From positions 1,440,001 through 1,504,000 of the forward strand of contig CAVWVI010000003.1 of assembly GCA_963758495.1 (NCBI GenBank): a DNA stretch of 64,000 nucleotides, read 5' to 3'. Positions within the stretch are counted from its first letter, which is position 1; every line of letters starts with the position of its first letter. Source of the stretch: Oligoflexia bacterium. Lineage in GTDB: Bacteria > Bdellovibrionota > UBA1018. Below are positions 30,716 through 52,589 of this stretch, in pieces. The notes beneath the pieces were generated by a model. The model searched no databases, was not told where the DNA came from, and was given only the letters and a program-made list of their open reading frames with translations. The translations under genes and the position numbers were made by a program.

Positions 30716-33700
30716 TCAGGAAAACTCCTTAAATAGGCTTTCGAGTCCAAAGAAAAGATCGCGGGGTGAGGTCGTCGCTATTTTTGCGATCAGTTTAGAG
30801 TCTGGCTTCAATTGGTACCGATCGGGGTATGCAGAAAGCAAGGCTATGGTTCGAATGGGATTCAGGAGACTATGAGGTCCTGGCAAAAGAGAAACCTTTT
30901 CTGGACCTACGGTGAGTGCATCAATTCTACATTTTTTTAAAAGGATTTTAATACGAATTAACCAAAGTAAATTCTGTGCTTCAATGGGAGGATTTCCAAA
31001 GCGGTCTCTCATTTCTTCTTCGAGATGATCAATTTCTGTCTCTTGGGATGCTGCTGAAAAGCGGCGGTAGAGCGAAAGTCTTTGGTGAACATCGGGGACA
31101 TAAGCTTCCGCCAAAAAAGAGGGGAAGGGAATTTTAATTTCGGGTTCTCTACTGGATTCTAGAGTGGCCGAATCCTGACCTTGAAGCTCTTGGATTGCTT
31201 CTTCAAGAATTTCCGTATAAAGATCAAACCCAACAGCTGCAATACTCCCAGATTGCTGTGGACCTAAAATATCACCCCCCCCTCGAATTTCGAGGTCATG
31301 TGAGGCAATGCTAAAACCACTTCCAAGTTCGACAAATTTTTGAATGACTTCGAGACGACGTTTAGCATCTTCCGTGATTCGTTTTTCATGTGGAATCAAA
31401 AGATATGCATAAGCTCTTTGCTGTGATCGCCCGACTCGGCCACGAATTTGGTAAAGCTGTGCTAACCCCAAGGTATCTGCACGGTCTATAATAATGGTAT
31501 TTGCAGATGGAAGGTCTATTCCTGATTCTATAATTGTTGTGCATATAAGAACATTGCTCTTCTTATGATAAAATGAGTCCATTGCAGTTTCCAGTTCCCG
31601 TTCAGGCATTTGTCCATGGGCAACAAGAATTTGTGCGGCAGGTACTAACTCCTGAACTCGAGAAGCCGTTTTATAAATAGAGTGCACTTTATTATGGAGA
31701 AAAAATACCTGACCTCCTCTAGAGAGTTCAAACTCAATGGCGCGTTTGATTACGGCGTCATCATATTGTGAAATATAAGTTCGTATAGGCAGACGGTCTA
31801 TAGGTGGAGTATTGATTAGACTAATGTCTCGAAGGCCGGAGAGCGCCATGTGCAAAGTTCGAGGAATAGGCGTAGCTGTCAAAGTCAAGACATGGGTATT
31901 TGTTCTTAGCGTTTTTAAACGCTCTTTATGTTCAACCCCAAAGCGGTGTTCTTCGTCTACTATGATAAGGCCCAGATCATGAAAAATGACATCTTTTGAG
32001 AGAAGTCTATGCGTCCCTATAATAATATCCACGCGACCCTTCTTAACGGCTTCAAGCAGACTTTTTTGGTTTTTAGGTGTTTTAAATCGCGAAATGGTTT
32101 CAATGATGAGTGGATAATCTTTCAAGCGGGATTTAAAGGATTGTTCATGCTGTTGAGCTAAAATAGTAGTAGGAACCAGAACCGCCACTTGCTTTCCATC
32201 GGAGACAGCTCGAAAGGCAGCACGAATTGCGACTTCAGTCTTTCCGTATCCCACGTCTCCACAGATTAAACGATCCATGACTCGTCCCGCTTCCATATCT
32301 GCAAGAGCAGCGTCAATGGCTTTGAGTTGATCAGGAGTTTCATCAAAGGGAAATTTTGCTTCGAACTCCCGAAAATCTGCATCACGAGGAGAAAATTGAA
32401 TGCCCGTACTTATTTTGCGTTTTGCATAGAGTTGGACTAAGTCAAAAGCAAGTCTTTTTACGCTTTCTCGTACTTTCTCCTTTGTTTTTGCGAACTGTTG
32501 GCTTCCAAGGCGGTCCAGTGCGATGCTATCTCCCATGCCAATATACTTTTGAATGACGTTGAGTCGATAAACAGGAAGATAAAGTTTATCTTTATTGGCG
32601 TATTCTAATGAGAGGAAATCACTGAGCGCACCCGAAAGGTCGAGACGAATAATGCCCTGGTATCGTCCAATCCCATGGTCGACATGAACAATAGCATCAC
32701 CTATTTCTAAGTCTGATAAAGCTTGTAGTCCAGACCAGTCTTTCGCTGCGGAGCCACTTTCAAGAGTGGATACTTTACGTTGTTTTCTGAGATGTTTGGC
32801 CCCTAGAATTTCTCCTTCTGTTAATATAACTAATCCTTCATCTGCCCAACGGAATCCTTCTGATAGAGAGCCAATACTTAATGTTATGTTGGAAGGCTGT
32901 AACAGCCCCTCTTGTTTGCATGAAAGTCCTCTCCCCTCTAATAGAAAGCGAATGCGCTCTAGCTGACTTTGAGTAGAGGCAAGGATCAGAACTCTAAAAC
33001 CTTGTTTGATCCAAACTCGAAATTCAGGTTCTAGCTCCCCCAATGAATGGCGAGAACCATGAGAAAGATGAGTATTGGGATGGATAGAGACGCGATGCGA
33101 ATTTGGGGAATCATCTGATGTCGCAGATGCTAACTCCATTCGATCCATAAAAATGTGTGAGTGGTCCTGAATGGTCTTTTTTAAGGAAGGGCTCCAATGA
33201 AAAAGAGCTTCAATTGTGGGCGCAATGACCTCAGACTGTGCCGCTTCTGCTGAGCGTTTATTTTGTTCCTCTTGAAATCGATCCCATTCCTGTTGGCAAC
33301 TGAATGCGTCATTCCAAATCGTCCTATAGTCTACTGGAAGGTAATGCCAAAAGTGAGCAGGTTTGTCGTAAACAAAAGGTGCCCAAGAATCGCTATGACT
33401 TGGATAAATACCATCTCGGACGGAAGCAAGAAGAGGGTCTCGAATGGCACGAGAGATTCCCATGTCATCTGCTCGGCTTTTGATGCGTTCTCTGAGAATG
33501 CAAGACGTTGTTTTGTTAATCAGAACCTCTCGAGCAGGAGGAATAAAGACTTTTAAATAGAGTGCTTGTTCATGAGCGACTGCTCGTTGGGTGCTGGGAT
33601 CAAAAGAGCGTATTCGTTCGACGGTATCGCCAAAAAGCTCAATTCGGATAGGCCGGACTTGGTCGGGAGGAAAAATATCGATGATTTCACCCCTCACTGC

Positions 33701-34273
33701 AAAAGTTCCAGGGTCTTCTACAGGGTCTACCCTCAGGTATCCAGATTCCAGGAGTCTGGTAATAAAAGTTTCGCGTGAACCCAAACTTTGTTCTATTTGG
33801 ATGAGGAGAGACGACTGGAGAAAGTAGTTTTTCGTAAGAGTGGCTTGAGAAGATGCAGCAGGAGTCGTGATAATGATGTGTGGGAACTCATTTTTTGCCA
33901 AAGCGCTTAAAACTTTGATTCTTGCAAGCCGAGTTTGAAGCGAAAGAGAGATGGGGCTGTATGGAGATTGTTCCCAAGTAGGAAAATGGTAAACATTCAA
34001 ACTTTTTCCCTCTACTGTGGTAGCTAGACATTCTAAGTCCGCACAAAATTCACTAGCGATGTCATCATTAGGGCAAAGTACGACAAGGGGCCCCTGTTTT
34101 TCAGTCTGTTGTGTACGGACTAAGGAATAGCGTGCGACAATTAAGGCACGAGTGGATGCAGTGGTTCCCAGTATATGAGTAGGTGCAGCCTGTTCAGTGA
34201 TAGAACGGAGAAGCGAATCAATATTGCAGGAAACCATAGGTTGCAATCTACTTACCTTGACACAAAATTTCAA
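30716..34273 (-). CDS. mfd: Transcription-repair coupling factor
   Basis: [10 protein letters not shown] (CarD/RID), [31 protein letters not shown] motif. Confidence 0.98.
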
Positions 34274-34305: not shown

Positions 34306-34734
34306 ATGCTAATCATGAGGAGTTGGGATTCCTATTATATCGTATTTTTGGCTGCAATTCTATCGCTGGGGATTCCGGCTAGCCTAGCTGCGATTTCATA
34401 TGTCTTTTTTAATAAAAATAGAGGCAAAGCCTTCAATCTACCTAAAGTTCAAGGCGCTAAACCTAACCGAACGATTCTAGGCCAAAGAATAAATGTCCGC
34501 TTTTTTTTGGCGGCTAATGCCGCATTGATCTTGATTACATTAGCATTAGAGCTGATACCTTGTGCAATTACCCTTAAATCTGAGAATCGAGAGGGATTAA
34601 TAAAAGGCTTAGTCGCAATAGTGACTCTAGCGGGATTTGCTGTATTAGGGTTACTCTACTCAGTGAGGAAGGGTGATATGGGTTGGTTGAGTTCATTTCA
34701 AATGGAAATTCGAAAAGAAAAGAAGAGCGATTAG
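34306..34734 (+). CDS. Divergent NuoA-like subunit
   Basis: Three hydrophobic segments, RINVRFF, C-terminal RKGDMGW; first gene of the operon. Confidence 0.7.
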   Translation: MLIMRSWDSYYIVFLAAILSLGIPASLAAISYVFFNKNRGKAFNLPKVQGAKPNRTILGQRINVRFFLAANAALILITLALELIPCAITLKSENREGLIKGLVAIVTLAGFAVLGLLYSVRKGDMGWLSSFQMEIRKEKKSD

Positions 34735-34737
34735 TTC

Positions 34738-35211
34738 ATGAAAGGATCCTTTTATTTATCAACCGTGGGTAGGCTTTTGAAATGGGCGAGTTCTCGTTCT
34801 CTTTGGTATTTGTCAACGGGGGGTGGGTGTTGCGCAGATGAGGTATTGAGCGCTATGGGTTGCAGATATGATTTGGAGAGATTCGGATGTCTACCCCAGG
34901 TCGATCCGCGACAAGCAGATTTGCTCATAGTTTGTGGGATGGTTTCCTATAAAGTGGCTCCGCATTTGAAGAGTCTTTATGATGCCATGCTTGCTCCGAA
35001 ATATGTTTTAGCGGTGGGGGCATGTGCGAATTGTGGTGGAGCATTCTCTCCCGAGTTCAGTTATTCGGTCGTTCCAGGTGTAGATCGGGTTATTCCTGTG
35101 GACGTCTATGTGCCCGGCTGTCCGCCTAGACCAGAAGCAATTATGAATGGGTTAATAGCCTTACAGGAAAAAATTTGTGGACAAGAATTCTCTCATCGCG
35201 AAGTTAAATAA
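34738..35211 (+). CDS. nuoB: NuoB-like Fe-S subunit (divergent set)
   Basis: GCCADE, RYDLERFG, PRQADL, GACANCGG, PGCPPRP. Confidence 0.92.
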   Translation: MKGSFYLSTVGRLLKWASSRSLWYLSTGGGCCADEVLSAMGCRYDLERFGCLPQVDPRQADLLIVCGMVSYKVAPHLKSLYDAMLAPKYVLAVGACANCGGAFSPEFSYSVVPGVDRVIPVDVYVPGCPPRPEAIMNGLIALQEKICGQEFSHREVK

Positions 35212-35719
35212 AACAGTTCCAGGGGCTATCCTTGAAAGTAGACGTTTTGGGCGCTCTGACCTTTCATCGATTTGGATTGAAGGGCAAGTGATCCAGAAGG
35301 TTGCTTTTGCCTTAAAGTCCTGGGTTGAAGTCAAGATAGACTGGTTGGAGAATTTATCTGTAGTAGAGTTTGATAAAGTATTGGTTATTACCTATTTCGT
35401 TCGTTCAACTTCTACAGGAGATAGTTTAGTGATACGAGCCTCTGCAGTTCCAGAGAGTTCAGAAAGTAGAGTCTTGTTTCCATCCATTCGCTCGATTTGG
35501 CCCATGGGAGAGCCAATGGAGCAAGAGGCTGAAGAAATGTTTGGAATTCAATTTCGATTGAATGAAGAAGATGGGGATTTACGAAAGATGAATCGGCTTC
35601 CTGAGGATTGGGACGGATTTCCATTACGAAAGAGTTATCTGTTTCCTGAAAGTTTTTTGGGAATAACGCATGCACGTACCTTGGATCGAACAAATCCAAA
35701 GAAGTTTTCTTCCTCATGA
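35177..35719 (+). CDS. nuoC: NuoC-like subunit (divergent set)
   Basis: PSIRSIWP..EQEAEEMFGIQF..PEDWDGFPLRK. Confidence 0.85.
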   Translation: MDKNSLIAKLNKTVPGAILESRRFGRSDLSSIWIEGQVIQKVAFALKSWVEVKIDWLENLSVVEFDKVLVITYFVRSTSTGDSLVIRASAVPESSESRVLFPSIRSIWPMGEPMEQEAEEMFGIQFRLNEEDGDLRKMNRLPEDWDGFPLRKSYLFPESFLGITHARTLDRTNPKKFSSS

Positions 35720-36852
35720 AACAGAACTCGAGGGACGCCCTAAAAACGGATTTAACTACTTGGGAAATTGGCCCCTACCACGGAGCGTTGCCTGCGCCGA
35801 TGAGGTTGCAGTTGAGTTTAGATGGTGAGATTATTGCGTCTTGTAAAGTTGAAACAGGATTTTTGCATAGAGGTTTAGAAAAGGCATGTGAGCTACATAC
35901 TTGGCATTCTACAGTGGCCTATGCAGATCATTTGGATCCGGAGGTTTCATTATTTGGAGAGCTTGCTGTTTGCTTAGCTGTTGAGGAAATCGCGAATATT
36001 GAAGTTCCTAAAAGAGCACAAAATATTCGACTTATTTTATCTGAGCTTACACGAATGTCCGCCCATCTTTATTACATGGTGCGAATGGCCAAATCCGTAG
36101 GTTCTGAAACTATTATTCACTATGTACTGAGAGACCGTGAGAAAATTTTGGATTTGTTTGAGTTACTCACCGGTGCTCGGTTTTCATTAAACTTCCTCCG
36201 TTTCGGAGGCGTGAGTGCCGACGTAACTGATGGTTTTATTGAACGAGTTTTAGAGACGTGCGAAATAATTCGAATTCGCATGAAAGAATATAACGATTTA
36301 TTTACTTTTAATCATATTTTTTTAAAGAGAACCGCTTATGTCGGGACCTTGCCTGCAAACTTGGTTCGTTCCTGTGGCATTACAGGTCCCAATGCTCGAG
36401 CCTCAGGAATTTCAAATGATGTTAGAAAAAGCAATCCTTATATGGGCTATGATCAAATAGAATTTACAATCCCTTTAGGAAGAGGCGAAGAAGGATATCT
36501 GGGTGATGTTCATGATCGATTCATCTTACGGCTGAGAGAGTTAACGCAAAGTATAGAAATTCTTAAACAGTTGGTAAATGCAGTTCCAGGCGGAGCATTT
36601 CTTAATCGAGAATTAGGAAAAGAATATGTGGTCCCAGCAGGCGAAGCTTACTCAAGGATCGAGAGTTCTAGGGGTTTGTTAGGATGCCATGTAGTGTCAG
36701 ATGGAAGAGAGTGTCCGAGTAGAATTCAGTTTCGAACACCTACTGTTGCCGTTCTAATGGCTATTCCAAAGTTAATTACAGGAATTAGGATTGAAGATCT
36801 TCCCGTTGTTTTGGCAAGTTTGGATTTAGGAATTGCAGAGGCAGATCGATGA
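35716..36852 (+). CDS. nuoD: NuoD-like subunit (divergent set)
   Basis: GFLHRGLEK, TGARF, GPNARASG, GEAYSRIESSRG, terminal EADR; no NiFe CxxC motifs. Confidence 0.9.
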   Translation: MKQNSRDALKTDLTTWEIGPYHGALPAPMRLQLSLDGEIIASCKVETGFLHRGLEKACELHTWHSTVAYADHLDPEVSLFGELAVCLAVEEIANIEVPKRAQNIRLILSELTRMSAHLYYMVRMAKSVGSETIIHYVLRDREKILDLFELLTGARFSLNFLRFGGVSADVTDGFIERVLETCEIIRIRMKEYNDLFTFNHIFLKRTAYVGTLPANLVRSCGITGPNARASGISNDVRKSNPYMGYDQIEFTIPLGRGEEGYLGDVHDRFILRLRELTQSIEILKQLVNAVPGGAFLNRELGKEYVVPAGEAYSRIESSRGLLGCHVVSDGRECPSRIQFRTPTVAVLMAIPKLITGIRIEDLPVVLASLDLGIAEADR

Positions 36853-37928
36853 CAAATCCGACGGTTTCCTGGATGGTTGCTTGGTGTGGTCTTTTTGGAA
36901 TTCGTACTGATTTGCCTGAAGCAGTTTATACTTTACTTGCTTTAATTTGCACCTATTGTTTTGTGGTAGTGCCCTCTGGTGGGGTGATGCTTTATTTGGA
37001 GCGTAAATTAAGTGCTGATCTTCAAGCCCGCGTGGGTCCAAAAAGAAGCGGCCCAGTGGGGATGCTACAACCCCTTGTCGATTTATTAAAATTATTACAA
37101 AAGGAAACTCGTGAAGAATGGAGTTGGCAAGAGAATGTCTGGTTGAGTATTTATACCATGGCGCTCTATTCAACGGTTGCAGTCATGCCGTTGGGTTCGT
37201 TAGCTCTTTTAGTAAATACTGAAATGAGTTCATTCATTCCTTTTTGGGCTGCTTTAGTTTTAGCCCTGGGCACGATGTTGTTAGGCTTGAGTCAAGGTTC
37301 GGTTCCTGGATGGTTTGGGGGAATTCGAGTTGCCGCGCAAACTCTTGCAGGATCATTCCCTGCTCTGATTGCATTTATCTGTACAGGTGTTCGCGCTAGT
37401 AGTTTTCGTTGGAGCGTGCTTGCAGAATCGCAAAGATTTGCCCCTTGGCACTGGACTCTTTTTTCTAATCCCTTTCAGACTTTGGCGTTTATTATTTTTG
37501 TGTTGAGTGGACTCGTATTGTTAGCGGTACCTCCTTTGGATGGAGGTCTTTCGATGTCTGATATTCATGGAGGAGTTTCATCTCATCTTTATGGGAGGCG
37601 ACTCAGCTTATTCAGGTTTGGAAGATTTTATGGTTTTTTCTTTTGGTCAGTGATCACCGTTGTTTTATTTCTAGGGGCATGGGCTTTACCTTTTGGCCTT
37701 TCAGAATGGCTGAAAAGAAATGAATTATTTGCCCCATTAGGGTTTTTAGAATTGATTTGGTTATTATTGAAGACGTTTGCTCTCATGCTCCTTGTGATTT
37801 GGATTGCACGAGTGAACTCTAGAAGTCGAGTCGATCAGATTACAGATTTTTCCTGGAAGGTTTTGAGTCCATTTTCTCTAGTCGCTCTAATAGGTGCAAG
37901 TTTATGGGCAGGATGGAGGGCTTTTTAA
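36849..37928 (+). CDS. nuoH: NuoH-like subunit (divergent set)
   Basis: LERKLSADLQARVGP..GMLQPLVDLLKLLQKE, RSRVDQ..WK. Confidence 0.88.
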   Translation: MTNPTVSWMVAWCGLFGIRTDLPEAVYTLLALICTYCFVVVPSGGVMLYLERKLSADLQARVGPKRSGPVGMLQPLVDLLKLLQKETREEWSWQENVWLSIYTMALYSTVAVMPLGSLALLVNTEMSSFIPFWAALVLALGTMLLGLSQGSVPGWFGGIRVAAQTLAGSFPALIAFICTGVRASSFRWSVLAESQRFAPWHWTLFSNPFQTLAFIIFVLSGLVLLAVPPLDGGLSMSDIHGGVSSHLYGRRLSLFRFGRFYGFFFWSVITVVLFLGAWALPFGLSEWLKRNELFAPLGFLELIWLLLKTFALMLLVIWIARVNSRSRVDQITDFSWKVLSPFSLVALIGASLWAGWRAF

Positions 37929-38461
37929 TGAAAACTTCCATTTTTTCAATCATAAGAGCCTATGTCCGAAATGTTTGTTTAGGAGCATGGTCAATTGCAG
38001 GGTCTTGTATGACTGCATTTCCTTATATATTTAGATGGGGTGATCTTCGTAAAGAGGTAACAGAAGGTTATCCAGATCCTGTTTCCTCTAAAACGGCGGA
38101 TGATTTGCCTCAACGAAGTCGTGGCTTATTATTCAATGACATTGATCGGTGCACCGGTTGCAAGGCATGTGAAACCATTTGTCCGGCTCAATGCATTCGG
38201 GTGGAAGAAGAACCTGGAGCCGATACCTCTAAAACTTGGGTTTCTACTTTTGATATTGATTTTTCAAGGTGTATTTTTTGTGGACTTTGTGTAGAGACGT
38301 GCCAACCTGGATCTTTAATTCATACTCGCCAGTACGAAGGAGCAGCTTATAATCTAACGGATTTAGTGGCAAATTTTGGAAGAGGCCAAGTGACTCCTGA
38401 GCAACGAGAGAAGTGGGCTGCTTTAAGGCAACTCAGTGAGAACGATGAGGCAACTTTATGA
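37928..38461 (+). CDS. nuoI: NuoI-like 2x[4Fe-4S] subunit (divergent set)
   Basis: CTGCKACETICP and CIFCGLCVETCQP. Confidence 0.92.
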   Translation: MKTSIFSIIRAYVRNVCLGAWSIAGSCMTAFPYIFRWGDLRKEVTEGYPDPVSSKTADDLPQRSRGLLFNDIDRCTGCKACETICPAQCIRVEEEPGADTSKTWVSTFDIDFSRCIFCGLCVETCQPGSLIHTRQYEGAAYNLTDLVANFGRGQVTPEQREKWAALRQLSENDEATL

Positions 38462-38952
38462 TGGAGTGGATTTTCGCAGGAATGACTATCTTTGCTGTCG
38501 TTTTGGCTACGTTTGCGAGACACACTCGCCATGCCATTCTAGCTCTTTGGGTGGCAGGACTCGGTGTGGGCGGGATGTATTTAATTTTAGGAGCAGAATT
38601 TCTAGCTATTATTCAGTGGATTGTCTCTACACTAGTGACGATTGCATTTATCTTTTTTTCCGTAATGTTTGGCGAGTATAATTCACCTGCCCCACGGGCT
38701 ATCGGTAATGGCTTATTGCTCACGCTCTTGTCAGTGGTCATCGGAGTTGGTTTTACGGTGGTCATTTGGTTAGGTGTTAAAGAATTACCCACAAGCTCCT
38801 TCATAGTAGAATCGGGTAGTAATGACTTGGAGCTCATGGGTCAAATGTTAACGCAAGAAAATTTACTTTCTTTAGAGGTTTTAGCACTGACTCTCTTCTT
38901 AGTTTTAGTAGGAGGAGGCGTAATCGCACGATTAGAAGGGAGTAATGAATGA
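38458..38952 (+). CDS. nuoJ: NuoJ-like subunit (divergent set)
   Basis: LGAEFLAIIQ, five hydrophobic segments, position in operon. Confidence 0.82.
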   Translation: MMEWIFAGMTIFAVVLATFARHTRHAILALWVAGLGVGGMYLILGAEFLAIIQWIVSTLVTIAFIFFSVMFGEYNSPAPRAIGNGLLLTLLSVVIGVGFTVVIWLGVKELPTSSFIVESGSNDLELMGQMLTQENLLSLEVLALTLFLVLVGGGVIARLEGSNE

Positions 38953-39239
38953 TGATGCTAGTGGCCGGCCTAATCGGTGGATTAGGTTTAGTATGCATGA
39001 TTTCTCGTAAAAGCTTATTAGGTCTTCTTATCGGAGTTCAGCTTCTTATTTTGGGATCTACAATGATGTTCGTCATAGCTGGAATATTTTCGGGCTTACG
39101 AATTCAAGGTCATATTTTTGGTTTATTTATTACGCTTGGGGGAATAGCACAGTTAGTAGTGGGATACTCACTTGCCATCCGGTTATTTTTCTTAAAAAAG
39201 GGGATATCCATGAATAAAGTACAGGCGCTCAAACAATGA
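38949..39239 (+). CDS. nuoK: NuoK-like subunit (divergent set)
   Basis: 96 aa, three hydrophobic segments, GHIFGLFIT; position in operon. Confidence 0.78.
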   Translation: MMMLVAGLIGGLGLVCMISRKSLLGLLIGVQLLILGSTMMFVIAGIFSGLRIQGHIFGLFITLGGIAQLVVGYSLAIRLFFLKKGISMNKVQALKQ

Positions 39240-41179
39240 CGATCCTTGAAAGTTCACCTACTCTTCTTACTATTTGTATTCTTTTCCTACTTTTTTTTGG
39301 GATCGTGATTATTTGTCTAGGAAAGGATCTCCCTGGCAAAGGAAGTTGGCTGGTTTGGGGTGGGATACTAGCAATTATCGCTTGTGTCGGCTTTGATTCC
39401 GGATTTTTTTTAAAACAAGCATTTAAAACTAAAATTTGGTCAGTGGGCTGGATTGGATTTCGGGGCGACACGGGTGCAATCACTGTGGGTATATTCGAAG
39501 ATCCAGTCGCTCTTGCAATGACTACTTTGGCGGCTCTTGTAACTTCGGGACTACTTTTGAATCATGGGGTGCTGTTACGGGAGTCTCGACCCGAGAGGAT
39601 TTATGCTGCGCTTGCAATTTCCACTTCAGGAGTTGCGCTCGCATGGAATTCACTCACTCCCTGGCTGATGTTCTCAGGGTTGAGTTTAACTCTTCTGGGT
39701 GGATTCGTTGCAATTGGATCAAGATGGGAAGTGAATTCAGAAGCACACTTAGGGATAAAGTTTATATTGGAACGGTCAGCAGGATTCTTGCTAGCTTTTT
39801 TTGGTACTTGTATTCTTGCTGCAAATCGTTCAGCGTTAACTTTAAACCAACCTCAAGTGTGGGAGGCTACTGCTGATCATTTGGGGTCAACATGGATTGG
39901 TTCTATTCTGCTTGTGGCGGGTTTATTTATACAAATGCAACCCTTTCCCTTCACGAGTGGGACAGCTACAAATTCACAAATCTATCCTCCGATTAAGGTC
40001 TTATTAAATCAGATATTCCCTGCTTGGGCGGTTTTTCCTTTATTGCTTCGATTGGAGCCTTTTTTTGTCAATCTAGGACTTTTTCCTCATTTTGGATGGA
40101 TCGCTCTAGGCTCCTCTATCCTGATTATTTTTTCAGGTCTTTTTCAAAATAAGTGGAGACAAACACTTGGAGCCTGGCTGGCCGCCGGTTTATCACTCTC
40201 TTGTGCCTTTCTTGCATTTGCGGGTCCTCTTGCAGCAATGGCATTGTTGTTAGGGGTGAGCTTAGGCGCTCTTTGTTTATCTGCTGCAGGGAGTGGGTTG
40301 GAAGATGAATGTCCTCAGAGCCATGGAAATAAAAAGCGTGCAGCTTGGGTTAAGGTAGGCGCATTTTTAGGGGCAGCGGCTGGGACTGGTGTGGTCGGTT
40401 TTATATCGGCGACAGGAGCAGTCCGGTGGATTGTCCAATCCATTAATTTTCCTGGTGTGATGACCTTTTTTCTTTTGGTATTTTTTCTATATGTATTGCT
40501 GAGTTGGAAATTAACTTGGAGCATTAATAAATTACGTAAATTTTCAAAAGTCTCGTGGTTGTCAATACTTTCTCTTTTTTTATGGGTATTACTCTCTTTA
40601 GGAGTAATTTGGACAGGATCTGTTACCGGAAGTGTTTTTCCCGGTGATTCTGATCGATTCCTAGGTTCTTTTTTTGATGAGTTCTTTGTGACAAAGTCAG
40701 TTGAACTTACCCCGTCTAGCGATTTTCTACTGGCCTCCAGTTTGTATTGGGGGACGTGGTTATTTGCTTTTGTTGCAGCTTATTGGACTGCGGGTAGAAA
40801 GGAAGATGTATGGGCCACTCTCGGTAAAGCGATCCCAAAAACAAGTAAATTTATCTCACAAGGCTATGGAATAACCGGGGCCATGCGCAGAGTACTTATT
40901 GGAGTTAAATGGGCTGGAGAGTGCGCAGAAGGTCTAATTGATCGAAGAATTTGGAATAATTGGATTCCTCGGGGATTATTTACGGGGATAAAAATTATTT
41001 CTGAACGAGTGAGTCAGATGGATGTTAGGTTATCTTTTGTATTAGGTAATGTCTTAAGAAAATCCGTCGAGATTCCTGCTAAAATTCTTCAATTGGTCCA
41101 AACAGGAGATCTGCAGTGGTATTTAGTTTTTGCTTTGGGTTCAGGGTTCGCGTTGTTGTCTCATTTTATAAAACTATAA
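39236..41179 (+). CDS. Highly divergent NuoL-like antiporter-type subunit
   Basis: Multi-TM protein with C-terminal QTGDLQWY like NuoL; position between K and M. Confidence 0.75.
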   Translation: MTILESSPTLLTICILFLLFFGIVIICLGKDLPGKGSWLVWGGILAIIACVGFDSGFFLKQAFKTKIWSVGWIGFRGDTGAITVGIFEDPVALAMTTLAALVTSGLLLNHGVLLRESRPERIYAALAISTSGVALAWNSLTPWLMFSGLSLTLLGGFVAIGSRWEVNSEAHLGIKFILERSAGFLLAFFGTCILAANRSALTLNQPQVWEATADHLGSTWIGSILLVAGLFIQMQPFPFTSGTATNSQIYPPIKVLLNQIFPAWAVFPLLLRLEPFFVNLGLFPHFGWIALGSSILIIFSGLFQNKWRQTLGAWLAAGLSLSCAFLAFAGPLAAMALLLGVSLGALCLSAAGSGLEDECPQSHGNKKRAAWVKVGAFLGAAAGTGVVGFISATGAVRWIVQSINFPGVMTFFLLVFFLYVLLSWKLTWSINKLRKFSKVSWLSILSLFLWVLLSLGVIWTGSVTGSVFPGDSDRFLGSFFDEFFVTKSVELTPSSDFLLASSLYWGTWLFAFVAAYWTAGRKEDVWATLGKAIPKTSKFISQGYGITGAMRRVLIGVKWAGECAEGLIDRRIWNNWIPRGLFTGIKIISERVSQMDVRLSFVLGNVLRKSVEIPAKILQLVQTGDLQWYLVFALGSGFALLSHFIKL

Positions 41180-41188
41180 GGGAATGAT

Positions 41189-42688
41189 GTGAGTAATCAT
41201 TTAATCAGTTTGATGGTATTTTTCCCAACACTGGGTGCAATTCTACAGGCATTTTTACCTCCTACTCGAAGTCGGTGGGCTGCGCTAGGTGCGAGTATTG
41301 TTGCAAGCATATTTGCGATTTTTCTAGTTGCTTCATTGCAGACGCAGACTGCGGATTTGCAAGCTACTGAGTTTTTGGGTTGGGTAGGTTCCTATGCCAT
41401 TAGTTATGAAATGGGAATTGACGGACTCAATGTTTTGCTCGTTTTACTCATCGCAATTCTTTTTCCCGTTCTCATTGCTTGCGAGTGGAATCAAAAGACA
41501 GGTGCACGAGGTATGCATGGTCTTTTTTTAATTTTACAGACGTCGTTATTTGGAGCAGTTTGTGCGCAAGACTTATTCTTACAGTTTTTCTTTTGGGGTT
41601 TAAGCGCTTTACCTTTTTACTTTCTTGTCGGGATTTGGGGAGGAGAGGGTCGAGAAAGTGCTTCATTTAGATCGATGGTGACGGCCTCATTGGGCGATGC
41701 ATTCATTTTTGCAGCCCTGATTCTTGTTTATTATTCAGTTGATCCTCACAGCTTTTCTTTAAGAGAATTAGCGGGAGGAAGACTTGTAGGGAAGACATTT
41801 GATTTACTCGGCTATGAGCTTCCTGTTTCGGGGGTGTCTTTTGTCTTAATGAGCATGGGTTTATCTTTGCGAGCACCTGTCTGGCCTTTTCATGGTTGGT
41901 TTACAGAGGTTGCGCAAGAAGCACCTTCTTCAGTTTTTGTTGCCCTTTGTGCCGGGACTGTTCCAGTAGCAATGTATATCTTTGTGAAAGACTGTTATCT
42001 CTTATTTCCTGAAACTTTAGGTTATACGGGTAAGATTATAGTGATCGTGGGCGCCATTAATCTGATTATGGGTGGTATTTGCGCAGTTTCTCAAAAAGGC
42101 CTCCGTAAATTGCTTGCGTTTATTTGCATTGGCGAAGTGGGTTTGGTTTTAATGGGCATGGGTTCACTGAGTCCGCTAGGTGTTGTAGGGGCAATTTACC
42201 AACAGTTAATTTTAGGTTTAGGATTAGCTGGGTTTGGACTTTTTTCTGGTATTCTAGCTCATAGGACAGGCCATTCTGATTTTTTAAGTGAAGACAATGA
42301 GCGCATTTTTGGTGGTATTGCAACTCAGGCTCCTGCAATGGCCGTCATAGCGGGGATTGTGGTTGCATCGTTACTGGGTTTTCCCGGTTTAGGTGGATTT
42401 GTAGGGCATGCATTAGTCATCATTGGAACTTATTCGATTCATCCTATGGCAGTTGTAGTATCCGGCTTTGCACTCCTGCTTGCATCCTATTATTTATTTA
42501 CAATGTATCGTTGTATATTCTTGGGTAACTCTGGTGTAAATTCACATTCTTTTGAAGACTTAACTTATAGAGAACGTGCCTATATGTTGCCAGTTGTATT
42601 TGGACTTTTGTTTTTCGGGCTTTATCCAAAGCCTTTGCTTGAATGGATTAGACCTACTGTGCTGACTTTGCTGTCGACGATCAAATGA
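41189..42688 (+). CDS. nuoM: NuoM-like subunit (divergent set)
   Basis: GIDGLN, LVGIWGG, PFHGW, LGFPGLGGFVG, DL..RE..GLYPKP. Confidence 0.88.
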   Translation: MSNHLISLMVFFPTLGAILQAFLPPTRSRWAALGASIVASIFAIFLVASLQTQTADLQATEFLGWVGSYAISYEMGIDGLNVLLVLLIAILFPVLIACEWNQKTGARGMHGLFLILQTSLFGAVCAQDLFLQFFFWGLSALPFYFLVGIWGGEGRESASFRSMVTASLGDAFIFAALILVYYSVDPHSFSLRELAGGRLVGKTFDLLGYELPVSGVSFVLMSMGLSLRAPVWPFHGWFTEVAQEAPSSVFVALCAGTVPVAMYIFVKDCYLLFPETLGYTGKIIVIVGAINLIMGGICAVSQKGLRKLLAFICIGEVGLVLMGMGSLSPLGVVGAIYQQLILGLGLAGFGLFSGILAHRTGHSDFLSEDNERIFGGIATQAPAMAVIAGIVVASLLGFPGLGGFVGHALVIIGTYSIHPMAVVVSGFALLLASYYLFTMYRCIFLGNSGVNSHSFEDLTYRERAYMLPVVFGLLFFGLYPKPLLEWIRPTVLTLLSTIK

Positions 42689-42721
42689 TCGTTTAAGCTT
42701 GAGAAAAGAGGAGGAAGGCCT

Positions 42722-44191
42722 TTGAAAGAGTTTTTTTTGATTATGCCCGAAATCTTTCTGGCCTTAACTTTAGCTTTTGTAATTATAGGAGAAATCACCT
42801 ATTTTGGTGAACAAATCCGACTCATCACTGCCACTTCCCTTCTGGGTTTAGCAGGCGCTTTTGTTCAGACTATTATTTCGTATGAATATGGAGCAGCACA
42901 AGTATTTGGAGGAACTCTTTCTGTAGATGGGTTTTCTTTATTTTTTAAATTACTTTTTATTACGCTAGCGATGCTTTCTATTTTCTCAGTTTCGCAATCT
43001 CAGGAAATTGCTGCAAGTAGAAGAACTGAGTATTGCGCTTTGATTCTAGCCTCGGCTTTGGCGATGTGTTTGGTCGCCTCTGCTGCCGATCTGACACTGA
43101 TCTTTTTGTCGCTCTTATTTTTGAATGTGATCGGGTATTTTCTTGCCGCATATGGGTGGCGCTCTCTATTGTCCACCGAGGCAGCTGTAAAATATTTGGC
43201 TTTTGGGGCGGTCGCCACCGCGTTGTTGCTTTATTCTCTAGCCATTCTTTTTGCATTCACTCATACATTGAATATTTACCAAATGCATAAAGCCCTCGAG
43301 CTGGCGCCCTTATCCTACAATGTCATGTTGGTTCTGTTTACTTTGTGTTTTTTGGCTTTTAGTTTTCAAATAGGCGCGTTTCCTATGTATCTCTTAGTTC
43401 CTGATATACTAGAAGGTGCACCTACGCCGGTCTCTGCGTTTTTATCTTTTGGGGCTCGAGCCGCGGGGTTTGCAGCTGCAATTCGATTCCTTATTGTGGT
43501 TTTTGCCAAGCCTGGGACTGCTCCTGGGCAATGGGAAGTACTCGGGCAATTTGATTGGACTCAAATTGTTTCATTCGTCTCAGGCATGACTATGTTGGTG
43601 GGAGCATTGCTCGCCTTTCTTCAAAAGGGGGCAAAGCGTCTGGTAGGCTATCTCGTCGTAGCTGAAACAGGCTTTTTGTTGATGGGCTTGCTTGTTCTAG
43701 ATCAAGTTGGAATTGCAGCTTTACTTTATAATTTAGTGATAGAGCTTTTTGCTTTAATGGGGAGCTTTTATCTTTTATCTTTTATTTTTGACGAGCTCAA
43801 ATCAGACCGCCTTGAAGACTTAAAAGGAATGTTGAAACGAGCTGTACCTGAGTGCGTTTGTTTAGTTATATTCCTCCTCTGTCTAGTAGGAAGCCCACCT
43901 ATGCCGGGATTTATTGGAAAATTTGCATTGATAGGTGTTGCTATTCGGCACCATCGGATTGTTTTGGCAATGATCGGTATAGTTTCAATGGTTATTTCTA
44001 CCGGAGCAGTGATCCGACTGGCGTTTAACTTAGTTGGAAACTTCCAGGAATCTACGGGCCCAGTCATGACTGCAAGTTTTTCAAGAAAAGCTTACTTAAC
44101 TATTCTAGTCGTTCCCATGGTTCTTGTCGGAATCTTTGCTGATTTCGTATTTAGATGGGCCGGGCAATCACTTGGCTTTATTTTCTGGTAG
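42722..44191 (+). CDS. nuoN: NuoN-like subunit (divergent set)
   Basis: STEAAVKY, PDILEGAPTPVSAF, GSPPMPGFIGKF. Confidence 0.88.
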   Translation: MKEFFLIMPEIFLALTLAFVIIGEITYFGEQIRLITATSLLGLAGAFVQTIISYEYGAAQVFGGTLSVDGFSLFFKLLFITLAMLSIFSVSQSQEIAASRRTEYCALILASALAMCLVASAADLTLIFLSLLFLNVIGYFLAAYGWRSLLSTEAAVKYLAFGAVATALLLYSLAILFAFTHTLNIYQMHKALELAPLSYNVMLVLFTLCFLAFSFQIGAFPMYLLVPDILEGAPTPVSAFLSFGARAAGFAAAIRFLIVVFAKPGTAPGQWEVLGQFDWTQIVSFVSGMTMLVGALLAFLQKGAKRLVGYLVVAETGFLLMGLLVLDQVGIAALLYNLVIELFALMGSFYLLSFIFDELKSDRLEDLKGMLKRAVPECVCLVIFLLCLVGSPPMPGFIGKFALIGVAIRHHRIVLAMIGIVSMVISTGAVIRLAFNLVGNFQESTGPVMTASFSRKAYLTILVVPMVLVGIFADFVFRWAGQSLGFIFW

Positions 44192-44224
44192 CACCTAGCT
44201 GCGCGTAGAGTTATAAAAAGTAAC

Positions 44225-44584
44225 ATGAGCTATATCCCTGTCTTAATTCTCATGTTGGTGGGACTGACCATTGGTGGAGCTATTCTTGTGCTTTCTACGT
44301 TATTGGGAAAGGGAATTCCTAATAAAAGAAAGAATATGGCATTTGAATGTGGTGTTCCTTCGTTTGGTTCCGCACGCCACAGAATCTCTGTCCGGTTTTA
44401 TTTGGTTGCGATTCTTTTTCTTTTATTTGATGTCGAGGGGATTTTCTTTTACCCTTGGGCAGTCGTTTATAAAAAATATCTCACTATTAATTCCTTTATT
44501 TTCATTGAGATGGCGTTTTTTGCTGCGATTTTATTAGTGGGATATCTTTACGTTTTGAAAAAAGGCGCTCTTGAATGGGAGTGA
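44225..44584 (+). CDS. nuoA: NADH-quinone oxidoreductase subunit A
   Basis: FECG, RFYLVAILFLLFDVE, KGALEWE. Confidence 0.96.
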   Translation: MSYIPVLILMLVGLTIGGAILVLSTLLGKGIPNKRKNMAFECGVPSFGSARHRISVRFYLVAILFLLFDVEGIFFYPWAVVYKKYLTINSFIFIEMAFFAAILLVGYLYVLKKGALEWE

Positions 44585-44629
44585 CTTTTGCCGATAGTCG
44601 TCGGAGCAGTTTCTTGAAAGGTAAGTATT

Positions 44630-45254
44630 ATGGGTAAAGATGGATCAGTAGGATTTTTAACTACACGCTTGGATGCGTTTGTAAATTGGGGTCGTAAGAA
44701 TGCTCTCTGGCCCCTTCCCTTTGGGACGAGCTGCTGTGGAATTGAGATGATGGCTACACTTTGTTCAGATTACGATATGTCCCGATTTGGAGCTGAAGTA
44801 GTCGGTTTTCTCCTAGGCAGAGTGATTTACTCATTGTTGCCGGGATCATTAATCTAAAGATGGCGCCTGTATTGAAGACGCGTCTATGACCAAATGAGCG
44901 ATCCAAAGTTTGTGATGTCGTTTGGCGCTTGTGCTTCTTCGGGTGGCATTTTCAATGTTTATAGTGTGCTTACAAGGGATTGATACTATGATTCCTGTAG
45001 ATGTGTATGTACCCGGATGTCCTCCGGCTCCAGAAGGAGTTATTCACGCTCTGATGAGGCTTCAAGATATGGTAGCCAAAGGTGAAACTCATTCGCAGAG
45101 GCAGCTTGCTCAGCGTAAAAAACGGTGCAAACGCTTAAGGTTTGAAATCGAAAAAGAGGTAATGAGAATGGATATTAGACACCCATTCCAACGAATGGCG
45201 GCGATTGGTTACAAAGTTTGGAGATATTATGGAAAAAACAAACCGCCAAATTAA
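44630..45254 (+). CDS. nuoB: NADH-quinone oxidoreductase subunit B (about 3 frameshifts; 3' end uncertain)
   Basis: SCCGIEM, then [15 protein letters not shown] and PGCPPAP in changing frames; indels near 44803, 44875 and 44970. Confidence 0.88.
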
Positions 45255-45730
45255 AGAAAAATTTGGGGCAGCGATCGAAGAAATTCGGATGCCCGACGAA
45301 TATCCAACAGATGTGCCAATTATTTATGTGAAAAAAGAGTCAATTGTGAGGTATTAAGGGTTTTAAAAGAAGAAGCGGAATTTGAGTATGGGTTCCTTTC
45401 TGATATTACAGCGACCGATGAAGAAATTGAGCCGCGCTTTGAGGTTGTTTACAATCTCTTTTCTCATCTTCATCGAGCTAGAATTCGGATAAAAGTGCGA
45501 GTACCCGAAGGTGAAGAAGTTCCTACCGTTACTCCTGTTTGGAAAGGTGCGGACTGGGCAGAGCGAGAAGTTTACGACATGTTTGGTGTTAAGTTTACTG
45601 GTCACCCCGATCTTCGCAGAATCCTCATGGATTCTCGTTGGGTAGGACATCCGTTGCGTAAGGATTACCCTTTAAGAGGATACCAAATCTTTACAGATGC
45701 AGAACCCATTGATCCAACCTTTTGGAGTGA
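45229..45730 (+). CDS. nuoC: NADH-quinone oxidoreductase subunit C (frameshifted)
   Basis: [44 protein letters not shown]; indel near 45348 and probably near 45720. Confidence 0.88.
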
Positions 45731-45740
45731 GAAGGAATCC

Positions 45741-46992
45741 ATGATTGAAAGAATTGAAGCTCAGCCAAAGAAATTTGATTTGCCCGATAGCTATCAGGTC
45801 GAGCATGATCCAGACGATCTATGGGGCGATTCACGTTTTATAGTGAATATTGGCCCGACTCACCCTGCGATGCACGGCGCATTAAGAATGGTAGCGAAGC
45901 TCAATGGAGAAACTATCGAAAAATCTTACTGTGAATTTGGTTTTACCCATCGGGCTAAAGAGAAGTTGGGTGAAAATCGAACTTTTCACAATTTCATCGT
46001 TTATACTGATCGACTTAATTATTGCTCAGCTCTTCTGAATAATGTGGTTTACGCCATGTCAGTTGAGCGATTGATGGGCGTAGAAGTTCCTGATCGTTGT
46101 ATTTGGATTCGGATGATTTGTTGTGAGCTAGCACGAGTCATTGATCATCTGATCTGTATTGGAATTAATGCAGTTGACCTAGGGGCTTTTTCCTTCTTTC
46201 TTTATGGATTTCATCAAAGAGAAGAAGCGTATACTTTGATTGAAAAGCTGTGCGGAGCTCGTCTGACAACCTCTTATACTCGTATTGGGGGGTTGATGGC
46301 GGATGCTCCTGAGGGCTTTGAAAAAGAGCTGAAAGTCTGGATTACCAAAACCAGAAAAGTAATCGATGAGATGGATGAGCTTCTGACCAATAATAAGATT
46401 TGGCGTAAGCGAACGGTAGGTGTGTCGGTATTTAATAAGGAAAATTGTCTTCAGTTATAGCTATTCAGGTCCGAATGCGCGGGCAGCGGGGATTGATTTG
46501 GATCTTCGCAGGGACCAACCTTGCATGTTCTATAAGGATGTCGAGTTTGATGTTCCTGTGACTCAAAATGGGGATGTTTATGATCGATATATGATTCGGT
46601 TGGCAGAGATTAGACAATCCTTAAATATTTTAAGTCAATGCGCTGATCGCATTAAAAAGGGCCCTATTTGGTCAGAAGATAAAAGAGTTCGAATTCCAGA
46701 TAAAGACGTTGTTCATAATACAATGGAAGGAATGATTCATCATTTTAAATTCTTTATGACTGGTTTTGAAGTTCCTGAAGGTGAAGCCTATACTCAGTTT
46801 GAAGCTGCTAATGGGGAGTTGGGATTTTACATTGTGAGTAAAGGTTCGCCTCGTGCCCATCGGATGAGGATTCGGGGACCGTCGGTTTGGCATTATCAAG
46901 GTCTTTCGACGATGGTTCAAGGAGAGAAGATCGCAGATATGGTTGCCGGGCTTGGAAGTATCAATGTAATTGCCGGTGAGCTCGATCGCTAA
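45741..46992 (+). CDS. nuoD: NADH-quinone oxidoreductase subunit D (frameshift near 46449)
   Basis: [27 protein letters not shown], terminal GELDR. Confidence 0.93.
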
Positions 46993-47001
46993 AAAGAGGC
47001 T

Positions 47002-47487
47002 ATGTTAAAGATGGAAACCAAAATTCTTTCGAAAAAATTCTATGACCAGATGGCAAAATTGGAGCCACGCTATCCAACAAAAGTAGCGCTTCTTTTGCCC
47101 GCTCTCCATGCGGCTCAAGATGAATTCGGCTGGCTTCCGCCAGAGGTGATGGATGAAGTCGCTCGTTATATTGGAATTCACCCGGCGCAAGTTCGAGAAG
47201 TCGCTAGTTTTTATACAATGTATAATTTAAAAAGTGTGGGTAAATATCACTTAAAATTTTGTACAAATGTTGCCTGCTGCCTCAGAGGTTCTGATGAACT
47301 TTTGGAGCATTGCGAGAAAAAATTCGGAATTAAATGTGGTGAAACTACCAAAGATAAGAAATTCACACTGATGGAAGAAGAATGTTTGGGCGCTTGTGGT
47401 ACGGCGCCTGCGATGATGCTCAATAATGACTATCATGAAAAACTAAACATTCAGACCCTTGATCAGCTGCTAAATAGCTTGGAGTAA
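47002..47487 (+). CDS. nuoE: NADH-quinone oxidoreductase subunit E
   Basis: VASFYTMY, CTNVAC, ECLGACGTAP. Confidence 0.96.
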   Translation: MLKMETKILSKKFYDQMAKLEPRYPTKVALLLPALHAAQDEFGWLPPEVMDEVARYIGIHPAQVREVASFYTMYNLKSVGKYHLKFCTNVACCLRGSDELLEHCEKKFGIKCGETTKDKKFTLMEEECLGACGTAPAMMLNNDYHEKLNIQTLDQLLNSLE

Positions 47488-47490
47488 TTT

Positions 47491-48769
47491 ATGGTGGATG
47501 ATTTTGATACTCTTTATATCCAGCATTTCAATGAGGAAGCACGCCCTCTTAATTATTATTTGAAGAGCATGGCGGGTTATACGGCCTCTAAAAAAGCTCT
47601 GGGTATGCCTCAAGACGAAATCATTGCAGAAGTGAAGAAATCCAATTTGCGAGGCCGAGGAGGCGCTGGGTTTCCAACGGGGATGAAGTGGGGATTCATT
47701 CCAAAGCAATCGAGTAAGCCAAAGTATTTGGTTTGCAATGCAGATGAATCGGAACCGGGTACTTTTAAAGATCGTGATATTATGAGGTACACCCCTCACC
47801 TTTTAATTGAGGGGATGATTATTGGTGCCCATGCTATTGGCGCAAATGTGGGCTATATTTATATTCGTGGTGAATATACTCGCGAAGCAAAACTTTTAGA
47901 TCAAGCTATTGATGAAGCCTATCTGAATGGGTATTTAGGTAAGAATATTCAAGGCTCAGGGTTTCACTTTGATCTCACCGTGCATCGTGGGGCGGGTGCT
48001 TATATTTGTGGTGAAGAAACTGGCATTATTGAACTCACTCGAAGGAAAGCGAGGAGAGCCTCGCGTGAAGCCACCTTTTCCTGCGCAGGCAGGAGCATTT
48101 GGTGGACCCACGATCGTGAATAATGTGGAAACTTTAGCAGCAATCCCATTTATTATGAATCGCGGAGGCGAGTGGTTTTCAAAATTAGGTAAGCTCGAAA
48201 AATCAGGTGGAACTCGCCTTTTTTGTGTCTCTGGACATGTGAAAAAGCCGGGCGTTTATGAATTGCCTGCAGGAAGTGTCACTCTGAGGCAACTGATTTA
48301 TGATTACTGTCATGGAATCTTAGATGATAAAAAACTTAAAGCGGTGATTCCTGGAGGATCTTCGGCTCCTGTCCTGACAGCGGATGAGATTGACGTCATA
48401 GTAGACATTGAACCGCTGATGAAGATCGGAACCATGTTGGGTTCAGCCGGAATTATGGTTGTAAGTGAAGACTATTGTGTCGTTAAACTCATTAAAAGAA
48501 TCACCAAGTTTTATGCTCATGAGTCCTGTGGGCAATGCACGCCCTGTCGAGAAGGCTGTAGATGGATGGAAGATATATTAGAGAGAATTGAACACGGCAA
48601 AGGGCGCGAGCAAGATTTGGCTCTGCTTTTGGAGATTGCAGATAATATTAATGGCAAAACTCTTTGTGCATTGGGAGATGCGGCAGCAGGTCCAGTAACA
48701 AGCTTTGTTAAGAAATTTCGAGCAGATTTTGAAGCTCATATTCGAGGTGGAAAATGCCCAAATGCGTGA
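47491..48769 (+). CDS. nuoF: NADH-quinone oxidoreductase subunit F (frameshift near 48022)
   Basis: [41 protein letters not shown]. Confidence 0.95.
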
Positions 48770-50175: not shown

Positions 50176-50178
50176 CCT

Positions 50179-51294: not shown

Positions 51295-51297
51295 TTT

Positions 51298-52277: not shown

Positions 52278-52586
52278 ATGATGCAAGTTGAACCGTGGGT
52301 TGTTTTATCCTTTTGTGCTGCTATCTTTTTTATCGGATTTACGGGTGTGCTCATTCGTAGAAATATTCTGGTAATTTTGATGAGTATCGAATTGATGCTG
52401 AACGCAGTGAATCTTACCTTTGTTACTTTTTCTAAGCAATTGCACCACATGGGTGGGCAAATGTCAGTTTTTTTCATTATCACTGTAGCTGCTGCTGAGT
52501 CAGCTGTGGGTCTGGGGTTGGTCATCGCGATGTTTCGAACATTGCGAAGTGTAGACACGGACGAAATTCAGTTATTAAGGGAGTAA
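52278..52586 (+). CDS. nuoK: NADH-quinone oxidoreductase subunit K
   Basis: RRNIL..MSIELMLNA, VAAAESAVGL. Confidence 0.96.
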   Translation: MMQVEPWVVLSFCAAIFFIGFTGVLIRRNILVILMSIELMLNAVNLTFVTFSKQLHHMGGQMSVFFIITVAAAESAVGLGLVIAMFRTLRSVDTDEIQLLRE

Positions 52587-52589
52587 CTT

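Follow-up and report, generated by a model that had tools for sequence, protein, structure and literature searches.

A conserved 11-subunit complex I operon stripped of quinone-site and proton-axis residues in class UBA1018 of the Bdellovibrionota

The genome of an Oligoflexia bacterium of class UBA1018 of the Bdellovibrionota (GCA_963758495.1) encodes two sets of complex I (nuo) genes in the 64,000-nucleotide stretch analysed here (contig CAVWVI010000003.1, positions 1,440,001 to 1,504,000; hereafter the window). A canonical 14-gene nuo operon (44225..57669, + strand), which serves as context and control, is preceded by 11 intact open reading frames (ORFs) on the same strand (34306-44191), overlapping or almost abutting as a preliminary description of the window had stated, that correspond to nuoABCDHIJKLMN and have lost nearly all of the residues considered central to quinone reduction and proton pumping. 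This stripped operon, situated between the conserved, divergent upstream gene mfd (30716..34273, - strand) and the canonical nuoA-N operon (the latter beginning 33 nt past its stop codon), is conserved and under strong purifying selection, and may encode an uncoupled electron conduit. Its gene set, residue losses, cysteine ligands, folds, ancestry and selection are described below from sequences and predicted models.

Loss of catalytic and pumping residues

Pfam and NCBIfam profiles identify ten of the 11 ORFs as NuoA, B, C, D, H, I, J, K, M and N, mostly at scores under the curated cut-offs (NuoA and NuoJ match Pfam by E-value only or near the cut-off). The remaining ORF, of 647 amino acids (aa), has no Pfam or NCBIfam match, and hhalign aligns it to E. 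coli NuoL with a probability of 100. Profile matches to nuoE, nuoF and nuoG occur only in the neighbouring operon and not in 34306-44191; the set A, B, C, D, H, I, J, K, L, M and N without E, F and G is that of the 11-subunit complex I-like type (NUO11), which the relevant part of PMC3144371 defines as having no NiFe cysteine pairs in NuoD. An Mrp antiporter would have a charged axis in its MrpA/MrpD-like subunits together with MrpE/F/G; here the axis is lost and all 11 ORFs are of Nuo type.

Subunits were aligned to those of E. coli K-12 and to orthologues, with NuoCD in 596-aa numbering, and 24 positions were scored, comprising the quinone triad, the E-channel and the NuoM/NuoN axis; the individual E. 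coli residue numbers are those that we take to be the key sites. Loci fetched twice (n=3) were counted once, one 4.9-kb fragment was excluded and short ORFs were filtered by length; NuoH counts out of 39 include one misassigned 331-aa ORF, which was excluded from the 24-position tally. Of the 24 residues, NuoN K395 is the one that the copy at 34306-44191 keeps. In core relatives 28 of 768 key-site cells are kept (NuoN K395 makes up 26 of these) and in four basal relatives 28 of 87, compared with 252/252 in intact orthologues of other classes and 500/501 in canonical copies. Judged against the canonical copies, the loss of residues here evidently exceeds chance. The catalytic or pumping role of these sites is treated in sections of PMC10212512, PMC7613608 and PMC4758237; nothing usable in the way of published mutant data on these residues was found in the full-text literature.

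In the nuoD-like gene (35716..36852, +, 378 aa), the triad is replaced by P26, P75 and S127 (H224>P, Y273>P and D325>S, equivalent to Thermus His38, Tyr87 and Asp139). Both H224 and D325 are missing from all 36 loci, and Y273 survives only in the four basal loci (4/36). Among 120 NuoD homologues from a protein database, H224 is absent from every one (Pro in 113), Y273 is Pro in 118, and D325 is never Asp. The loss of the NuoD quinone loop announced in the preliminary description is incomplete: H224, Y273 and D325 are gone, but the first loop histidine (H220, Thermus H34; H22 in this protein) is kept here and in 27/36 loci. Also kept is D588 (Thermus D401; D370 in this protein), which is found in 35/36 loci and is the one residue present (Pro, Ile, Asp) out of the minimal quinone signature Y87/F146/D401 given in a section of PMC4758237.

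The E-channel is similarly affected. The nuoA-like product (34306..34734, +, 142 aa) has lost the motif of the loop between transmembrane helices (TM) 1 and 2, with D79>I77 and E81>L79, and neither acid is kept in any of 33 sequences. In the nuoH-like product (36849..37928, +, 359 aa), the acids of the E-channel and the TM5-6 loop are mostly lost (E157>S, E216>L, E218>M, E228>H, E241>R; E157 kept in 0/39), with E36 and D213 (27/39) kept and the docking stretch from TM1 to amphipathic helix 1 (AH1) conserved. The nuoJ-like product (38458..38952, +, 164 aa) carries Y59>S and G61>L in TM3 (Y59 kept in 0/35), and the nuoK-like product (38949..39239, +, 96 aa) carries E36>Q and E72>Q (both kept in 0/33).

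The antiporter-like subunits have lost most of their axis: nuoM-like (41189..42688, +, 499 aa) has E144>G, K234>R, H248>A, K265>P, H322>E, H348>L and E407>H with H241 kept, and nuoN-like (42722..44191, +, 489 aa) has E133>L, K217>Q, K247>R, H305>E and Y333>E with K158, D229 and K395 kept. By hhalign alignment to E. coli, all axis residues of nuoL-like (39236..41179, +, 647 aa) are lost (E144>S, K229>Q, H254>Q, K342>G, K399>A), with single-column shifts possible because identity is 15%; no lysine lies near the K342 and K399 sites. Of GluTM5, LysTM7, Lys/HisTM8 and Lys/GluTM12 of NuoL, NuoM and NuoN, identified as pumping-axis residues in part of PMC10212512, 1/12 is kept (NuoN K395). The TM5 glutamate is kept in 3/35 NuoN and 2/35 NuoM sequences, and several sites carry non-titratable look-alikes (NuoK E36>Q in 26/33, NuoN E133>Q in 20/35, NuoM K234>R in 35/35, NuoN K247>R in 25/35); such Glu>Gln and Lys>Arg substitutions would keep shape but not proton transfer.

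The preliminary description had proposed that quinone-site and pumping residues were systematically lost and had allowed that compensating charges along the axis might overturn the idea. The tally bears out the loss, with the reservation that NuoM (R228, E316) and NuoN (R246, E315, E341, K400) of this copy carry charged residues at some axis sites. NuoN K395 is Lys or Arg in 33/35 orthologues, but NuoN site 305 is Gln in 19/35 and site 333 varies (E in 14, Q in 10, D in 4, and others), the TM5 glutamate is nearly always gone, NuoL is without any axis, and in the second order of the class these NuoN and NuoM sites are mostly hydrophobic. The Arg, Glu and Lys residues of NuoM and NuoN do not form a conserved titratable chain.

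Cluster ligands, gained residues and predicted folds

All iron-sulfur cysteines of NuoB and NuoI are retained, in agreement with the preliminary description. The nuoB-like product (34738..35211, +, 157 aa) keeps four cysteine ligands (C31, C32, C96 and C128, with E35), which are found in 34-35/35 near and 17-18/18 distant sequences, and the nuoI-like product (37904..38461, +, 185 aa) keeps eight cysteines in two CxxCxxCxxxC motifs, both of which occur in 56/57 NuoI sequences. As read from these motifs, the ligands of the tandem-cysteine cluster N2 and of N6a and N6b are present. The two CxxC motifs of the large subunit of group 4 [NiFe]-hydrogenases, correctly described as lacking, were found in 0/120 NuoD homologues (no CxxC at all).

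Gained residues were defined against 27-30 intact orthologues. NuoB has acquired Y24 (29/35, replacing an invariant Pro) and D34 (27/35, replacing Val/Ile) beside the N2 ligands, and NuoD has acquired E76 (29/36), H135 (32/36) and R139 (35/36) beside the old quinone site. NuoI has a clade-specific 5-aa insertion (YPDPVSS here) in which the motif YPD-x-VS occurs in 37/57 stripped and 0/30 intact sequences. New conserved acids and bases are found at helix ends of NuoN (E30, R33, E377). NuoN K158 (34/35), NuoN D229 (34/35) and NuoM H241 (29/35), which we take to be contacts of the lateral helix, are kept. Many apparent gains relative to canonical copies were dropped, being shared with the intact orthologues, and NuoB R87 was rejected as a marker of loss, the intact orthologues carrying Met there (27/27). 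The insert at NuoD 495-520 of 14-subunit enzymes (about 20 aa), which presumably faces NuoG, is absent from both stripped (36/36) and intact (30/30) forms.

The antiporter folds of NuoL and NuoN are predicted to be retained. In the AlphaFold model of NuoL (32-row alignment; predicted local distance difference test, pLDDT, 87.8), a lateral helix of 76 residues (model residues 546-621) precedes the final TM helix at the C-terminal end; Foldseek matches the model to E. coli NuoL and to NdhF at a TM-score of about 0.7. The NuoN model (pLDDT 90.8) superimposes on NdhB and E. coli NuoN with Z 49-52 and a root-mean-square deviation of about 2 A over 456-475 residues.

Purifying selection and rates of divergence

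The ratio of nonsynonymous to synonymous substitution rates (dN/dS, Nei-Gojobori) is 0.050 for the stripped operons of the closest pair, L003/L010 (2688 codons, dS 0.23), versus 0.033 for the canonical copy (472 codons), and 0.19 versus 0.11 for the pair L040/L041. Three pairs from family f3 give 0.031-0.039 over approximately 2050 codons, and all unsaturated pairs, f3 included, fall between 0.03 and 0.19; eight other pairs within the class, among them all pairs that include the window, were saturated in dS and were not used. A cluster of pseudogenes is ruled out by values far below 1 together with 11 intact ORFs, and the decay that the preliminary description had named as a possible outcome (dN/dS near 1) is not seen. 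Its proposal of a maintained pseudo-complex I is upheld by this selection and by the class-wide occurrence, fixed synteny and retained folds.

Within the same genomes, divergence is roughly doubled in the stripped copy relative to the canonical one (mean identity 0.26-0.54 versus 0.54-0.72). Its soluble iron-sulfur subunits are the best conserved part of the complex, with mean identities of 0.56 (B), 0.50 (I) and 0.49 (D), versus 0.30-0.38 for A, H, J and K; NuoL (0.21) is the most eroded subunit, and the nuoC-like gene (35177..35719, +, 180 aa) is also fast-evolving.

Ancestry and relation to known complexes

In the trees of NuoM and NuoN the stripped clade groups with intact mfd-adjacent copies, with support of 100 and 98 (Shimodaira-Hasegawa-like approximate likelihood ratio test, SH-aLRT). 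E. coli is the one outgroup on which the root of the trees rests. In a mixture-model NuoM tree of 29 rows, the stripped clade is supported at 100/99, its union with the intact copies at 89/90, and the split of stripped, intact and a third 11-subunit type from the canonical copies at 100/98. A long stem (1.48) leads to the stripped clade in the NuoM tree, followed by shorter branches. A recent tandem duplication of the neighbouring operon, as implied by the preliminary description in calling this copy a paralog of its neighbour, is rejected by these trees; the operon appears to derive from an older, separate 11-subunit complex I lineage.

The intact mfd-adjacent copy of Bdellovibrionota, of NUO11 type, has the same 11 subunit types, mfd site, tree clade, short NuoD and lack of NiFe cysteines as the stripped copy. 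It keeps the key residues (252/252 membrane cells, and 30/30 for the NuoD His, Tyr and Asp), which the stripped copy has lost while gaining others, and it is split into nuoAHJKLMN by mfd and nuoBCDI elsewhere, whereas the stripped copy is one operon. It is probably the Peredibacter cluster of PMC13147790, part of which describes nuoAHJKLMN at a fixed Bdellovibrionota site without residue analysis. A passage of PMC4758237 calls the Bdellovibrio nuo operon split, the part of PMC4453560 on genomes with two isozymes does not mention Bdellovibrio, and the class description in PMC13200544 (section 19) contains no discussion of complex I. PMC11707229 offered nothing that bears on the subject. The full-text literature, in a search that did not extend to subscription papers, yielded no account of a complex I stripped of these residues in the group.

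With canonical complex I (E. coli Nuo and Thermus Nqo; PDB 7z7s and 2fug) the stripped copy shares NuoL and NuoN folds, gene order, tandem-cysteine N2 and the ligands of N6a and N6b, but it is without nuoEFG, the quinone triad, the E-channel and the antiporter axis, and the 100/98 split argues that it is not derived from its neighbour. Archaeal Fpo and cyanobacterial NDH-1 (PDB 6hum and 6khj) have an 11-subunit core and a non-NADH donor, as proposed here, and NdhF and NdhB of NDH-1 are the structures that the NuoL and NuoN models match best. However, Fpo and NDH-1 reduce a membrane carrier and pump, and according to a section of PMC4758237 Fpo keeps Y87/F146/D401, of which the stripped copy has only D401. 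Group 4 [NiFe]-hydrogenases, Ehr and MBS likewise use the architecture of complex I for another reaction close to N2, although no CxxC occurs in the 120 NuoD homologues. These hydrogenases and the Ehr and MBS complexes keep ion-moving residues. Sequence scores favour Nuo, with complex I chains far ahead of Mbh (E 1e-73 versus 1e-42) and somewhat ahead of MBS (1e-59); no Ehr or MBS rows entered the trees. By descent the stripped copy belongs to the 11-subunit complex I type, but it does not have the catalytic residues that define that type.

Distribution and family variants

A profile of the stripped-type NuoI, at a threshold that also scores intact orthologues of other classes, has matches in 92 of 95 other sampled UBA1018 genomes; because those orthologues pass, five genomes with second-order matches were examined at the level of the loci themselves. 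Named matches are metagenome-assembled genomes (MAGs) of Bdellovibrionota type, including UBA1018, FG-1 and FG-2 (4/72 have vague or other labels), and these MAGs are assigned in part of PMC13200544 to class UBA1018 (proposed Bdellonasia), sister to Bacteriovoracia. Among 1.84 billion representatives, the profile search returned a small number of strong clusters, beyond which the matches formed a continuum of NuoI-like proteins. The stripped nuoN is followed by canonical nuoA in 28/28 class regions fetched. Twelve regions from other classes have nuoAHJKLMN with all residues intact, beside mfd where the region extends that far; nuoBCDI lie elsewhere in two genomes examined, and NuoF was found in 0/4 family f22 genomes with an intact orthologue. 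Two complete genomes of other families (G091, G213) have a single nuo set only.

Within the class the residues form a series, from half-stripped basal families (f6, f7), whose four loci keep several NuoM residues as well as NuoD Y273, through the fully stripped core to the shrunken family f3 (L100-L104, L118, L119). Operons of f3 have B, D, H, I and J, with L of about 290 aa, M of about 330 aa and N of about 450 aa; no A, C or K was recognised in them. Their membrane subunits (280-454 aa) are nearly charge-free, and their iron-sulfur cysteines are intact.

Other variants were observed. Families f13 and f14, in the second order, have a fourth antiporter-like gene between stripped nuoL and nuoM (L063 3988-5454; L105 9033-10394; L106 8961-10304; L107 8749-10113; L116 10232-11572), which is closest to NuoM (hhalign probability 88) and constitutes a stripped "2M" layout. 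In some family f1 genomes (L113, L114, L115) a third 11-subunit nuo operon lies at another place; its residues are intact, and it forms a long branch by itself. The intact nuoBCDI module (L066, L068, L070-L099), located apart from the membrane genes, encodes NuoI with an insert of about 11 aa between the clusters and NuoB with Met at the usually invariant Arg87. One genome (G009, L067 9904-13995) has an Ehr-like cluster of B, a fused CD without quinone residues, I and membrane genes.

Possible functions of the stripped complex

The reading favoured here, tentatively and at a little less than an even chance, is that an ancient 11-subunit complex I has become an uncoupled, membrane-anchored conduit of three clusters with a remodelled N2 pocket. 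The particle formed by its subunits would still be L-shaped. NuoI would be the entry point for electrons, delivered by a soluble low-potential carrier (ferredoxin or flavodoxin) and not by NADH via the neighbouring NuoEFG; from there they would pass along N6a, N6b and N2 to the remodelled pocket (NuoB Tyr24/Asp34; NuoD Glu76/His135/Arg139). That pocket would act either on an acceptor other than quinone bound in the usual way or on quinone in an uncoupled reaction. Retention of the membrane arm would be for anchoring and scaffolding, not for pumping. We infer the soluble non-NADH donor and the uncoupled reaction because the ancestor is without NuoEFG in at least some genomes and the 495-520 insert is absent from both forms. 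Pumping as known is unsupported: each of A, J, K, N, M and L has a break in the chain, and the most eroded subunit, NuoL, is the sole proton exit in the model presented in part of PMC10212512. What selection keeps best appears to be the N6a-N6b-N2 wire and the folds and interfaces anchoring it to the membrane, and the complex would probably serve redox balancing or redox sensing without energy conservation. A broader proposal, which we regard as possible but less likely than not, is that of a class-wide, near-indispensable pseudo-complex I in which the three-cluster wire and a rebuilt N2 pocket carry out a non-quinone membrane redox reaction or redox sensing, with the pump as pure scaffold.

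Several observations weigh against an electron conduit. The cysteines could persist merely for cluster-dependent folding of NuoB and NuoI, and one f13 NuoB (L107) has lost three ligands. Of the new residues, NuoB D34 occurs in only 7/18 and NuoD H135 in only 10/18 distant sequences and neither is class-wide; their apparent placement in the pocket comes from the Thermus alignment and the known structure of complex I, not from measured distances. The 2-oxoacid:ferredoxin oxidoreductase family PF01855 was not found in this 92%-complete genome, so that no donor is in sight, and the membrane genes L, M, N, J, K and A, approximately 6 kb in all, go beyond what an anchor would require. The futalosine MqnA family was also not found in this genome. 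The main rival is a non-catalytic scaffold or regulator that pairs with canonical complex I or other respiratory complexes as an assembly aid, supercomplex partner or membrane shaper, its clusters being only structural, which we consider unlikely but a serious contender. All three published quinone ligands are gone, the NuoH docking stretch and the presumed lateral-helix contacts (NuoN K158 and D229, NuoM H241) are kept, and NuoN has its new helix-end charges; yet it is the soluble iron-sulfur subunits and not the membrane surfaces that are best conserved, and the surroundings of N2 have gained conserved polar residues. The constant position directly ahead of canonical nuoA would fit such pairing, but the adjacency is ancestral, with intact orthologues also preceding a second membrane-arm cluster, and the canonical operon probably has its own promoter (21/36 loci).

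It is improbable that the complex has become a redox-gated channel or a transporter of some other ion or solute. The path would run through the remaining charges of this copy (NuoN R246-E315-E341-K400; NuoM R228, H235 and E316), in NuoM and NuoN subunits with intact folds, and would draw on the prevalence of Lys or Arg at NuoN 395 and of Arg at NuoM 234, but Gln at NuoN 305, the variable site 333 and the rarity of the TM5 glutamate interrupt it across orthologues, the second order is hydrophobic at most of these sites, and in f3 the operon persists with membrane subunits that are truncated and nearly devoid of charges. That the complex still reduces quinone and pumps by a variant mechanism, with compensating residues elsewhere, is very improbable: NuoD H220 and D588, NuoB E67 and NuoH D213 are kept, basal lineages retain Y273 and several NuoM residues, and archaeal Fpo functions without H38 and D139 according to a section of PMC4758237, but Fpo keeps Y87, which is Pro here, and with no titratable axis residue in NuoA, J, K or L the chain laid out in part of PMC10212512 is broken at every subunit. 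Slow pseudogenisation of a duplicate would account for the doubled rate and for the genes lost from f3, and has almost nothing else in its favour given the low dN/dS of every unsaturated pair, the intact ORFs and the retention of the operon in nearly every genome sampled; we assign it a negligible probability.

Canonical operon and other genes of the window

The canonical operon adjoins the stripped one as the preliminary description had stated, but in this assembly it is interrupted by frame breaks or internal stops in five of its 14 genes (nuoB, C, D, F and N), mostly outside homopolymers, and the stripped copy has none. In a comparison of 198 genes (220 kb) with a relative, 13 breaks were flagged, of which five lie within four canonical nuo genes; the other eight include only two frame switches. 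The canonical operon is thus broken far more often than the rest of the genome sample. Those canonical subunits that are intact are unaltered at invariant positions, and the canonical copies of relatives are whole; assembly error is more likely than real loss.

The spacer TAGC-N17-TATAAA-N7-ATG (44189..44227, +), which overlaps the stop codon of the stripped nuoN, is a possible promoter, leaderless in type, belonging to the canonical operon itself. The pattern is present in 21/36 loci, the TAGC-N17-TATA motif often lying about 7 nt upstream of canonical nuoA, and a general promoter scan found no excess (15 versus 19.8 expected). Because this promoter-like spacer precedes canonical nuoA, obligate co-transcription of the two operons was not relied on.

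Elsewhere in the window, dnaA (1423-2890) is split by a frameshift in this assembly. A low-GC patch at approximately 21-24.5 kb holds a TRL-like gene and a gene (21092-22102) for an ORF6N-domain protein with a DnaA C-terminal helix-turn-helix domain. Directly 3' of the canonical operon, on the same strand, is a gene for a 1012-aa tetratricopeptide repeat (TPR) protein (57705-60743).

Implications

Because annotation pipelines name these genes as ordinary nuo subunits, metabolic models of the MAGs would count a pump that probably does not exist. The Glu>Gln and Lys>Arg axis substitutions, the half-stripped forms and the intact sisters would constitute a natural mutational series for the coupling mechanism, the class preserving intact, half-stripped and shrunken stages in succession. 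Coupling is commonly seen as the purpose of complex I, and an uncoupled version kept across a class would point to a second function of the architecture. If the proposal of a rebuilt N2 pocket is true, a whole respiratory machine has been turned into a new kind of enzyme in these bacteria.

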